In this document: positions 9,602 to 12,487 of the stretch, piece after piece
Position numbering within the stretch: the first letter of the stretch is position 1
Layout of the letters: each line of letters opens with the position of its first letter
NCBI GenBank assembly: GCA_049976845.1
Contig: JBMFHL010000015.1
Location: forward strand, 1 to 15,284
Direction: 5' to 3'
DNA: 15,284 nt
From: Candidatus Micrarchaeia archaeon
Lineage (GTDB): Archaea > Micrarchaeota > Micrarchaeia > Micrarchaeales > CABMGC01
Translations under genes and position numbers: made by a program
The notes under the pieces: generated by a model
What the model was told of the DNA's origin: nothing
Databases searched by the model: none
The model's input: the letters and a program-made list of their open reading frames with translations, nothing else

Positions 9602-9964
9602 TTACCAGCCGTACGGCTTAGCTTTCTTTATCTCCTTCGGCTCGAAAGCATAGTTGTACAGCGTGTCCTTGTATTCTACTTCCTCTTCCTTGATGCCATT
9701 TTCTTTGGGCTCCACGCCATTCTCCTTGAGCAGTGCAATTATACCATCAAGGCTTATCTTAGGCAATTCATTTTCTGCGCCTTTCTTGTTGTAATACAAC
9801 TCTATGCTCCCCTTTGCAAATGACACCTTTGCTTTTATTATTGCATCGTTGAGCAGCAATCTGTACTGCAATCTTGCAGCGTGAGGTACATCCACAAGCC
9901 CCTTTTTGTCAACACTTATAACCGCATGCACAATCTTTTTGTAAGGTATTACATCCATACTCAT
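9602..9964 (-). CDS. Small hypothetical protein, HMA/ferredoxin-like (beta-alpha-beta-beta-alpha-beta) pattern without CxxC; possibly DUF3213-like
   Basis: GLVDVPHAARLQYRLLLNDAIIKAKVSFAKGSIELYYN...ISLDGIIALLKENGVEP follows the HMA hydrophobic pattern. ATGA overlap with the radical SAM stop. Confidence 0.75.
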   Translation of the reverse strand: MSMDVIPYKKIVHAVISVDKKGLVDVPHAARLQYRLLLNDAIIKAKVSFAKGSIELYYNKKGAENELPKISLDGIIALLKENGVEPKENGIKEEEVEYKDTLYNYAFEPKEIKKAKPYGW

Positions 9965-11673
9965 GCTTTCACCCCTGCATTGCCCTTGCCATTTACTGGC
10001 AGCGAGAAATAGTCCACGAGCTTGTCATAAGTCCTATGATAATCTTCTGTTGATTCAAGCTCCTTTACATTTCTAATATACTTCTCTTTCTGGTAATCCC
10101 ATTCAGGATGCATCTCCTTCCACTTTGCATTCGGTATGCTGTACTGCCTTTGTATTTTGTCCCTGTAAATCTCAGGAAATACATTGAATGTGCAGAAAGG
10201 CAATATCTCACCATCTGGCATTACATAGTGTATGTCGCATTTCTCAACCCTTGATATATCATATGTATATTCGTCCTGGAAGTGCATCATTCCTAAGAAA
10301 AGCGACTTGACGTGGAATGCTCCCAGGGAGGAAAAGTCATGCTTTAATAGTACAGTAGTTAGCAGCTTAGGAACATTTATGCTCTTCGGCATATTCTTAG
10401 TGTCGACAAATTTCCTTATGCCTGCAACAGTCTTGAGCGCTATCAGCTTTCTTTGCATCTTGCCCTTGCCTTCCATCTCATTTACCGCGCCCTGCAGATG
10501 CTCTATGAGCCCAGGCGCATCTATAAACCGGGTTATTGGTATGACTCTATTGTCATTGTCAAGGAAAAGATACGTTCCTGCGCCGCACGCGAAGTGTATT
10601 GAAAGGTCATATGTAAAATTGCCACTAAGCGCCTCAATAAACTTGCTTATGCCGCCGGTATAAGGAACTGAGAACCAGTCCTCTTTCATTATATTGCCTT
10701 TGGTCTGCTCCTCAATAAGCTTGATTGCCCCAGGTATAGTAATCCTCTGCTTCTCCCTGAGCCTGTCTGGCATGCGCCCCACAAGCGAAACGGGCTGGAA
10801 ATTTACAGCTCTAACAATGTCAATGTTGTTTAACGCAAAGTTTATTATGTTGCCAAGGTCTCCATCGTTCACGGTTCTTATGACAGTGGGCACAAGCACT
10901 ATCCCTGTTTTTGCTTCACGTGCTGCCTTAAGTATGGAAGGAATCTCCCAGTGGTTCTTTGGGTTAGTGCGCTTGCTCACTCCGTCGAAGCTCATATACA
11001 GAGTGCTAGTGCCTGCTTCTCTAAGCTCTTTGAGCAGCTTAGGGTTTGCTCCCAAGTTTATGCCTGTAGTATTGAGTTGTATCTGGTCAAATCCGACCTT
11101 CTTTGCTATTCTCACAATGTCCACTATGTCCTTCCTCATTGTCGGCTCGCCGCCAGTTATCTGCAGCGCATTTGTAGCTATGGGTTTCACATTTCTCAAA
11201 TCTACTAGCATCCTCTCTATCTCGCCAAGGCTGGGCTCGTATATAGGCTCGCCCTCCTTTGCGTAGAAGAAGCAGTACCAGCATGAAAGGTGGCACCTGT
11301 TTGTCACAACTATATTGGCAAGCGCTGTGTGGCTCTTGTGCCTTGAGCAAAGTCCGCAATCAAATGGGCAGTTCTCGCCCAGTGTCGGGTAATTTGGATT
11401 GGTAACCCCCCTCCCGTTGTAAGCATATTTTGACATCCTTTCATACATATCATAATCTTCCCAATACTTCTCTATGGTCCAACCATGCTCTGGGCAGTAT
11501 TTTCTTATCATGACATTGTCATTGTCCCTGTAAATTATCCCGTCTATAATCAATTTGCACGTGGGGCATACTGTCTTTGTCTTGCCCAGCACCGGCAGCT
11601 TCTCTATCTCTTCCATGCTCCTATGATAAGGCTCTAAAATCTTCTTCTCTATTTCTGTAGTTTTTTCTTCCAT
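9961..11673 (-). CDS. tes: Tetraether lipid synthase Tes / GDGT-MAS homologue (MJ0619-family radical SAM enzyme), ~570 aa
   Basis: N-terminal metal site CPTC...CPEHG, auxiliary cluster CPFDCGLCSRH, radical SAM motif CHLSCWYC, TGGEPT, NFQPVS..GR, HFACG and C-terminal MHFQD...CDIHY..PDG.ILPFC.FN. Start placed at ATG 11673 with GGGTG RBS; the ORF track starts at GTG 11685. Confidence 0.88.
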   Translation of the reverse strand: MEEKTTEIEKKILEPYHRSMEEIEKLPVLGKTKTVCPTCKLIIDGIIYRDNDNVMIRKYCPEHGWTIEKYWEDYDMYERMSKYAYNGRGVTNPNYPTLGENCPFDCGLCSRHKSHTALANIVVTNRCHLSCWYCFFYAKEGEPIYEPSLGEIERMLVDLRNVKPIATNALQITGGEPTMRKDIVDIVRIAKKVGFDQIQLNTTGINLGANPKLLKELREAGTSTLYMSFDGVSKRTNPKNHWEIPSILKAAREAKTGIVLVPTVIRTVNDGDLGNIINFALNNIDIVRAVNFQPVSLVGRMPDRLREKQRITIPGAIKLIEEQTKGNIMKEDWFSVPYTGGISKFIEALSGNFTYDLSIHFACGAGTYLFLDNDNRVIPITRFIDAPGLIEHLQGAVNEMEGKGKMQRKLIALKTVAGIRKFVDTKNMPKSINVPKLLTTVLLKHDFSSLGAFHVKSLFLGMMHFQDEYTYDISRVEKCDIHYVMPDGEILPFCTFNVFPEIYRDKIQRQYSIPNAKWKEMHPEWDYQKEKYIRNVKELESTEDYHRTYDKLVDYFSLPVNGKGNAGVKA

Positions 11674-11677
11674 AGAA

Positions 11678-12487
11678 TCAAACACCCTTCCTAACTCTGG
11701 CCCTAGAAATAGTGCTTTCTAAATTCTTTTTCAGCACATCTGCTATAAACCTTTTGCTGAAAGCATCAGCCTTTGAAGCTATGCTTATCTTAGTTGCGTA
11801 TATCCTTGCTATCCTTCCTCCATTATGCCTTCCTGCATTCGAAACCTGAGGCATCTTGTACAATATCCCGTATTTTGGCGGCCTGCTGCCATACTTTAAG
11901 TGCTTGAAGAGCGCCTTTTCTGCGCCAAGCAACTGTATTGTGCTTGCTGGCATAAGCGCAAGCTTGTTTAATGAACCTGCCCTGCTCAGCAATTCTGCAG
12001 CAATCTTTGTGTCTACAAGATAAGAAATATTAGGCATTATCCTCTTGACGCTTCTATCGATATATCCGGAGAGGTTGTCCTGCATGCCTGCTATGTTTAT
12101 AAGAAGGTTTGCGATCGAAGAAAGGGTCTTGTATTCCTCCTCGCTCGGCTCCCTGCCTATGCTCCTGTTTATCGCATTCTCGACATCCTTAGCCTTGTCT
12201 CCTAGCAGCTCCGAAAGCTCCGCGGCGCTTGCATTCTTTTTGTTAGCTCCGAATTTAAGCACGAACTTTGCATACGTGACCTGGTTGCTTATCCTAAGCT
12301 CTGGGAAGTAAATGCTATACCACTCCTCGAGCCTCTCAAATACAAGGTTCTTTACCTTATCCATCTCCAAATAAGAATTTATTGCCTCTATTATTGCATG
12401 CTCTTCTCCAGCATAAGCACTGCTGACGCTTGCCTTGGCTTTGTCAAGCAATCTCCTCCTCTTCTCTTCAACACTTTCCTTCCTCAC
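11678..12487 (-). CDS. nop5: Nop5 (Nop56/58) C/D box sRNP protein, short form
   Basis: Coiled-coil segment ERLEEWYSIYFPEL and Nop domain AGSLNKLALMPASTIQLLGAEKALFKHL...PPKYGILY...GRIAR...ASKAD. GTG start with GGTG RBS. Confidence 0.93.
   Translation of the reverse strand: MRKESVEEKRRRLLDKAKASVSSAYAGEEHAIIEAINSYLEMDKVKNLVFERLEEWYSIYFPELRISNQVTYAKFVLKFGANKKNASAAELSELLGDKAKDVENAINRSIGREPSEEEYKTLSSIANLLINIAGMQDNLSGYIDRSVKRIMPNISYLVDTKIAAELLSRAGSLNKLALMPASTIQLLGAEKALFKHLKYGSRPPKYGILYKMPQVSNAGRHNGGRIARIYATKISIASKADAFSKRFIADVLKKNLESTISRARVRKGV

Follow-up and report, generated by a model that had tools for sequence, protein, structure and literature searches.

A cysteine-free HMA-fold protein encoded directly behind tes in Micrarchaeota, a probable helper subunit of tetraether synthase with a positional counterpart in DUF3213

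Archaea owe their survival in extreme habitats to glycerol dialkyl glycerol tetraether (GDGT) lipids, on which widely used palaeoclimate proxies are also based, and the tetraether synthase (Tes) was identified only in 2022 and has been treated as a stand-alone enzyme. Here we consider a small gene located directly behind tes in a 15,284-nucleotide stretch of DNA from a Candidatus Micrarchaeia archaeon (contig JBMFHL010000015.1; the whole stretch is referred to below as the window). Its product, which is called here the partner, is probably an undescribed helper subunit of tetraether synthase, so far as this can be judged from sequence data, and comparative genomics supports the interpretation of the gene as that of a Tes partner. 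The partner belongs to an unnamed family of proteins, which is joined here both to tetraether synthase and to the orphan family DUF3213 of Thermococcales.

The phmmer search over 1.84 billion representative sequences was exhaustive and gave 23 clusters with E ≤ 0.001, while the profile search revealed partner homologues in 352 protein clusters; among the matches listed (120 of the 352 clusters) every named one is a “hypothetical protein” and none has a Pfam domain. When each species is represented by a single genome, relatives of the partner are encoded at 147 loci. Intact homologues in so many clusters and loci are well beyond chance and confirm that the open reading frame (ORF) is a real gene. 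Nearly all of the best 80 of these 147 loci are labelled Micrarchaeota, Micrarchaeia or Micrarchaeaceae, the exceptions being one “archaeon”, three Marsarchaeota, one Mancarchaeum and one Methanothrix, and two of the 80, those of Ca. Micrarchaeum sp. A_DKE and Micrarchaeota archaeon ARM-1, come from complete genomes that carry the tes–partner pair. The majority of the family members represent a long form of about 195–235 amino acids (aa), composed of an N-terminal tail (MDRRD...), a core equal to the protein of the window, a charged helical extension with the motif EEW.KMKPEWE...KF.EWQ..Y..HP and a lysine-rich end; the core-only form is confined to the subgroup of the window and two other small groups.

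Co-occurrence of the two genes was estimated at two taxonomic levels. At the order level (41 genomes) Tes exceeding the cut-off was found in 36 genomes and the partner in 35, five Tes-less genomes (G011, G012, G014, G015 and G020) being five of the six without a detected partner; in the sixth, G025, tes is immediately followed by a divergent homologue (hhalign probability 96%). Comparison of two coordinate tables by eye shows that all 35 partner-containing genomes have the homologue downstream of Tes, with contig and strand in common, and the only wide gap was registered in G010, where two opposite-strand genes are inserted. The insert in this only split pair (L032:2366-3471) codes for two proteins, one a membrane protein of 126 aa and the other a Ser/Thr-rich anchored protein of 238 aa. 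At the phylum level (301 genomes) both genes are present in 50 of 53 genomes of family f1 and in 70 of 75 genomes of family f3. Together with the genome of the window this makes 129 genomes, of which 121 have both genes, eight have neither and none has a single one, the same eight genomes of f1 and f3 lacking both tes and partner (co-loss 8/8). These tallies take in two unpublished genomes (G038 and G211), without which the result is unchanged. Outside f1 and f3 Tes is found in 10 of 172 genomes, and only G051 gave a weak partner match; its small gene is located directly after tes and aligns with the partner family with an hhalign probability of 95%.

The initial annotation of the window, made from the sequence alone, had proposed a conserved small partner of Tes and had made this proposal dependent, among other things, on linkage of the homologues to tes elsewhere. 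Such linkage was found. In 79 of the best 80 loci the gene immediately upstream, with the same orientation, is tes, the 80th locus having just 209 nt of upstream sequence, and the flanks of the pair are not kept (Nop56-like gene in 13 and DHH gene in 15 of the same 80 loci). In 64 related loci the Tes stop is separated from the partner start by a median of 16 nt, and in 53 of them the distance does not exceed 40 nt; words resembling the Shine-Dalgarno sequence precede the partner start in 43 of these 64, some of the starts being chosen by us. At L036/L004 (G005) tes and partner are in one frame with a single stop codon and two codons between them, i.e. one substitution from fusion. Thus, strict co-occurrence taken together with co-loss and adjacency supports the idea of a conserved small partner of Tes.

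The same gene arrangement was found in Thermococcales. The Tes scan started from euryarchaeal sequences led to Thermococcus loci, and in both of those extending past tes the next gene is DUF3213 (E 6.3e-40 and 1.3e-24). All 81 genomes searched in the order around a Thermococcus genome contain Tes, and 79 of them also contain DUF3213 (PF11491). In each of these 79 the gene immediately 3′ of tes, read from the same strand, is that of DUF3213 (tables compared by eye), so that the initial annotation, which placed DUF3213 beside tes-like genes, turned out to be right. The spacer calculated by script for 30 loci varies from −20 to +11 nt. One genome of the order has a second DUF3213 copy at a contig end, and the two genomes without DUF3213 have Tes of another clade, 36–39% identical to Thermococcus Tes and nearer to the Methanocaldococcus type. 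Thirteen of the 81 genomes contain tes frames of about 1040–1075 aa with DUF3213 still following them, and at L224 an intein with a LAGLIDADG domain is located inside the radical S-adenosylmethionine (SAM) core of Tes.

Phylogenetic reconstruction (IQ-TREE in quick mode, LG+G4, 70 Tes rows) placed 15 partner-linked Tes together with one of unknown status, the contig of which ends after tes, in one clade supported by the Shimodaira–Hasegawa-like approximate likelihood ratio test (SH-aLRT) at 98. These 15 include eight of the Micrarchaeaceae type, the window's Tes among them, those of G025 and G051, and five from Thermococcales, the latter being sister to G025 plus Micrarchaeaceae (support 96). 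FastTree applied to 158 rows recovers the same grouping. Other Tes of the phylum Micrarchaeota lie elsewhere in the tree and have no partner; presence of the partner tracks one Tes clade, not an organismal group. Since the partner-linked Tes form a single clade, tes and partner look like one two-gene module that arose once; the micrarchaeal family and DUF3213 would occupy equivalent positions in it and would have diverged too far for the Pfam model to recognise both. Tes from the other Micrarchaeota-phylum genomes represent three other clades, and the Micrarchaeaceae type is sister to Thermococcales, not to Thermoplasmata; because Micrarchaeota Tes fall in different clades, several independent acquisitions of tes in this phylum are suggested. 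The tails of partner-linked Tes contain two motifs, HP[DE]W.Y.KDKY and Y.KTY...[DN][YF]F, which are not found in outgroups, the first of them being absent in G051 and in the row of unknown status. Tail length as a marker of the partner was ruled out, as many partner-less Tes (from Nitrososphaeria, Thermoplasmata and Thermoprotei) have tails of 70–90 aa.

One may suppose that the small gene is an unrelated passenger of the tes transcript having no role in tetraether formation, since small genomes pack unrelated genes tightly and the neighbours of the pair in the window are unrelated housekeeping genes. However, with joint loss in eight genomes of eight, with adjacency preserved in 79/80 and 79/79 cases in two distant lineages despite changing flanks, and with the partner following a particular clade of Tes, this explanation appears highly improbable.

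The AlphaFold2 (AF2) model of the window's partner, built on an alignment of 22 homologues, has a mean predicted local distance difference test (pLDDT) value of 82.7 and contains strands at residues 10–18, 42–48, 53–58 and 86–97 and helices at 26–37, 72–81 and 98–107. The order of these elements is beta-alpha-beta-beta-alpha-beta plus one extra helix, which is the ferredoxin-like fold, about 70 residues long, of HMA domains (PF00403), and Foldseek matches of the model are mostly HMA domains with template modelling (TM) scores of 0.64–0.87 by target. At the sequence level the family profile matches the HMA domains of B. subtilis CopA (1p6t, E 3e-5; 2rml, E 2.6e-4), which points to a distant kinship. 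The metal-binding (G)MxCxxC loop is not present in the partner, which has D-V-P-H instead and no cysteine at all, and in the alignment with 1p6t the D-i-P-H of the family profile falls on C-A-A-C of CopA. The HMA pattern and the A-x-x-QY-x-L helix read in the initial annotation are therefore seen in the model and in the alignments, and its claim of D-V-P-H in place of CxxC is correct. The 120-aa protein gave no Pfam or NCBIfam match at E ≤ 1, the Pfam HMA model PF00403 was not reached by the family (best E 0.061, one of 22 members), and the divergent member from G051 gave weak CopZ-type NCBIfam matches (E 1.5e-4 and 0.002) below the cut-offs. Thus, the partner resembles metallochaperones of the HMA/CopZ/Atx1 type in its profile similarity to CopA HMA and in these weak CopZ-type matches, but differs from them in D-V-P-H, absence of cysteines, an extra C-terminal helix and a gene whose neighbour codes for a lipid enzyme of the radical SAM type where a metal pump might be expected. 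It is a new Cys-free variant of the HMA fold.

The helix motif of the window's protein reads A30-R-L-Q33-Y34-R-L36 and its motif residues are invariant in 53 family members, as are P7, Y8, D25, H28, R31 and L32 and, at further positions, A45, N59, N65, K69, Y98 and P117. On the model most of the invariant residues map before strand 1, to the beta1-alpha1 loop, to helix 1 and to the loop after strand 3; P7, Y8, D25, H28, A30–Y34, L36, N59, N65 and K69 share the face made up of loop 1, helix 1 and loop 3, and the Q-Y pair on the exposed side of helix 1 is the one that unites all branches. HMA domains contact their partners via the metal loop and helix 1. Titles of PDB entries among the fold matches include HMA domains of plant immune receptors whose only task is to bind proteins. 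These integrated or decoy HMA domains, and HIPP proteins, are like the partner, as we read it, in using the HMA fold for protein binding and not for metal transfer; they are, however, eukaryotic, have an unrelated role and in many cases keep their cysteines, so that this is an analogy of principle only.

A comparable structure is predicted for DUF3213. In the protein Atlas the nearest named neighbour of the partner is a DUF3213 cluster (feature score 0.79, which is a lead only), and structural comparison there, extending over 100 residues, gave TM values of 0.66 (by query) and 0.77 (by row). The AF2 model of DUF3213 (pLDDT 81.1) has strands at 8–16, 37–43, 48–53 and 72–81 and helices at 21–32, 60–66 and 82–98, i.e. 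the E-H-E-E-H-E-H order identical to that of the partner model, and its nearest folds are the same HMA domains. The DUF3213 profile matches PDB entry 2F40 (P. furiosus PF1455) with E 1.4e-29, which makes it a solved member of this family; no fold search had 2F40 among its top 50 matches, not even the one started from the DUF3213 model, and this absence carries no weight. Either prediction and nuclear magnetic resonance model disagree, or the fold libraries do not offer this entry. DUF3213 is thus like the partner in its position directly 3′ of tes on the same strand, often with an overlap, and in the A-x-x-Q-Y-x-L helix, A-A-R-L-Q-Y-R-L being paired with A-T-x-K-Q-Y-E-L in the hhalign register. 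It differs in the loop, which reads N-I-N-W-E-K, in lacking the D..H pair, the Y-N-P turn and the P-Y-G-W end, and in having its own F-x-N-G-Y and an invariant S-W-N-N end; it has no long form and was found here only in the order around Thermococcus. Likeness of the QY helix to DUF3213, noticed in the initial annotation, thus holds for the helix itself and for the order of elements and fails with the Pfam model, as specified below. Homology of the two families is probable, not proven.

A Tes-binding subunit is the interpretation that we favour, because the metal motif is gone, helix 1 with its Q-Y pair is shared and HMA domains do serve as protein-binding modules. On the basis of sequences and models it seems rather likely that the partner is a small dedicated non-catalytic subunit of Tes built on a degenerate HMA domain. 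The domain has lost its CxxC metal site, and the protein would be produced along with Tes through translational coupling on a shared transcript. It may then dock on Tes by the face which HMA domains use for their partners, namely by the loops beta1-alpha1 and beta3-alpha2 together with the outward side of helix 1 (R-L-Q-Y-R-L), and may contribute there to stabilisation of the enzyme, to its membrane placement or to product tuning. DUF3213 of Thermococcales would be the counterpart in the same two-gene module.

Several observations weigh against this interpretation. In a broad sample of archaea the partner hidden Markov models match only 4 of 80 Tes loci, leaving 76 without such a neighbour; three of the four are labelled Micrarchaeota and one “Acidiferrales bacterium”, the Tes of which nests inside Micrarchaeaceae in the tree. 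Furthermore, 115 nearest-neighbour ORFs at 73 Tes loci of other archaea showed no HMA or DUF3213 match at E ≤ 0.001. Tes of the M. jannaschii type is active alone in vitro, as stated in Lloyd 2022. With most archaeal Tes having no partner and that of M. jannaschii needing none, a part of the partner in the core chemistry can be ruled out. A Tes–partner fusion was not found among 7999 scored candidates of 460–2000 aa, this search being a weak one, and the related genomes compared above are non-independent samples. The tie to DUF3213 rests largely on position, fold and the Tes tree; PF11491 fails to match the window's family at E ≤ 1 (its threshold is 27 bits), and hhalign of the 53-member partner alignment against 26 DUF3213 proteins gave a probability of only 66% (E 5.6e-5, 56 columns), with 20% and 0.2% obtained from single sequences. 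In the six-frame scan of 41 related genomes none of eight weak PF11491 matches (E ≤ 10) fell on the partner gene. Finally, the invariance of D25 and H28 in the Micrarchaeaceae-type family fits a residual metal or catalytic site equally well.

The last point leads to the main rival explanation, which takes the partner for a working metallochaperone with a hard metal (Fe or Zn) bound to Asp25/His28 and handed to Tes, for example to the rubredoxin-like Cys3His iron site or to an auxiliary cluster. According to Lloyd 2022, Tes holds three [4Fe-4S] clusters and one mononuclear iron. The family descends from HMA/CopZ-type domains, and D25 and H28 occupy the positions of two HMA cysteines in 53 aligned members of 53. 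Moreover, His-rich Tes tails with CGCG repeats (e.g. ...GDSCGCG...SCGCG...) are found at L012, L013, L015, L020, L032 and in 27 of 65 related loci among L033–L112, and all these 27 Cys-rich-tailed Tes are paired with a partner ending in xWFHG. Such a tail looks like a metal-binding appendage, and its CGC-type motifs presumably resemble the high-affinity nickel site of HypB. However, on the tree the two features require at least 5 and at least 6 changes, respectively, and provide only 2–3 well-supported independent contrasts, which all have the same direction and are not significant (sign test p 0.5), so that the link between the Cys-rich tail and the xWFHG end is suggestive only, and the pair of the window has neither feature. 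The D..H pair itself is missing in the members from G025 and G051 and in DUF3213, and two ligands in a protein without cysteines would form a weak site. Taken together, this makes a metallochaperone an unlikely explanation.

Another rival assumes a lipid-handling or membrane-placing factor, which would recruit Tes, take up diethers or release tetraethers by means of its aromatic and basic C-terminus (PYGW, GFWFHG, SWNN). Tes does act on membrane lipids, and the ends of these proteins are peculiar: the last 30 residues of the long form contain 23% Lys, have a median net charge of +4 and often finish with GFWFHG, the short form of the window ends with KKAKPYGW and DUF3213 with S-W-N-N. On the other hand, the helical hydrophobic moment of the long tails (0.47) is no greater than that of shuffled tails (0.51), which leaves the idea of an amphipathic membrane helix unsupported, the HMA core has no lipid cavity, there is no transmembrane segment, and the window's form has no long tail. 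We therefore regard this possibility as quite unlikely, slightly less probable than the previous one, and retain the Tes-binding subunit as the preferred interpretation.

In the window itself the partner gene is read from the minus strand and its translation gives 120 aa with zero cysteines (Table 1). Its ATG (9964-9962) overlaps the TGA (9963-9961) of the 574-aa tes ORF, exactly as the initial annotation had it, and the minus-strand text around the junction reads GGGGTGAAAGCATGAGTATG. The product of the upstream gene scores 679.9 bits with NF045702 (cut-off 450) over profile positions 1–485 of 486 and is thus a full-length Tes, which also matches PF04055 and the zinc ribbon PF23545. Its GTG start is tentative, with an alternative ATG four codons further in. 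A Nop56-like gene lies upstream of tes and shares the last 8 nt of its 3′ end with the tentative beginning of Tes; this gene (11678-12487, minus strand) is short, with 269 aa, covers profile positions 136–375 of 417 and is devoid of the N-terminal domain. Downstream of the partner there is a gene for a DHH/HAN-nuclease-like protein, convergent on the locus, and the remaining genes of the window are housekeeping ones.

Table 1. Coordinates of the tes–partner locus within the window
Feature	Position	Strand	Remarks
Partner gene (short form of the family), coding for a Cys-free HMA-fold protein of 120 aa	9602..9964	-	stop codon included
ATGA overlap of the partner start codon and the Tes stop codon (putative translational coupling)	9961..9964	-	
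Shine-Dalgarno-like GGGGTGA	9969..9975	-	5 nt upstream of the partner ATG, within the end of tes
Tes, radical SAM enzyme with N-terminal zinc ribbon	9961..11685	-	NF045702, PF04055, PF23545
C-terminal tail of Tes past the family profile, residues 518–574	9964..10134	-	HPEWDY.KEKY and Y..TY...DYF, common to Thermococcales Tes

Other genes adjoin tes in other archaea. In about two dozen loci, mostly with Nitrososphaeria/Thaumarchaeota labels (L115, L118, L127, L131-L137, L144-L148, L154-L156, L159-L162, L166, L167, L172, L178), a TrmB-family regulator of about 255 aa is encoded divergently just upstream of tes, and it could be a dedicated regulator of tetraether synthesis. Archease (PF01951) directly follows tes on the same strand in five Thermoplasmata loci (L175, L180, L181, L183, L184), a protein of the SCP2 sterol-carrier type comes after tes in a Tiamatella metagenome-assembled genome (L130:4187-4534), and geranylgeranyl reductase genes adjoin tes at L153, L176 and L177.

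No partner or accessory protein of Tes was found in the literature, supplements aside, on tetraether synthase in connection with DPANN or Micrarchaeota, on GDGT-MAS and on Tes of T. kodakarensis. These searches returned the known Tes papers, in agreement with the initial annotation, according to which no such partner is known to have been described for GDGT synthesis. In the available text of Zeng 2022 (PMC8941075) the words neighbor, operon and partner do not occur, and the words accessory, partner and chaperone are likewise absent from the available text of a 2026 review (PMC13459092); among the papers searched, none mentions “DUF3213” and a single unrelated one mentions “PF1455”. The window's Tes is a full-length member of the same family as GDGT-MAS (MJ0619), whereas the Tes enzymes studied so far have been described without any partner. 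According to Zeng 2022, tes in metagenome-assembled genomes of DPANN may come from hosts. Because the gene stands in complete Micrarchaeota genomes beside a lineage-specific gene, we argue that Micrarchaeota tes is their own and not host contamination. For Ca. Micrarchaeum harzensis, Krause 2022 (PMC8975820) reports membranes with GDGT-0 and an incomplete lipid pathway, as might be expected of a symbiont completing its tetraethers with precursors taken from elsewhere.

A conserved coupled partner in two lineages would mean an overlooked part of the tetraether system, while the orphan DUF3213, including its solved member 2F40, gains fold ancestry and a functional setting. The pair is open to direct testing, both in Thermococcus kodakarensis, which is genetically tractable, and with the complete Micrarchaeota genomes of A_DKE and ARM-1. 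A bolder version of our interpretation, which we consider possible though rather doubtful, is that one archaeal clade has a two-subunit Tes, the HMA-derived subunit of which would be needed in vivo for tetraethers or would set the product balance or membrane placement, and that this module moved horizontally between a Thermococcales-like lineage and Micrarchaeota. If true, such a horizontally acquired module would let genome-reduced symbionts turn diethers scavenged from their hosts into tetraethers of their own.
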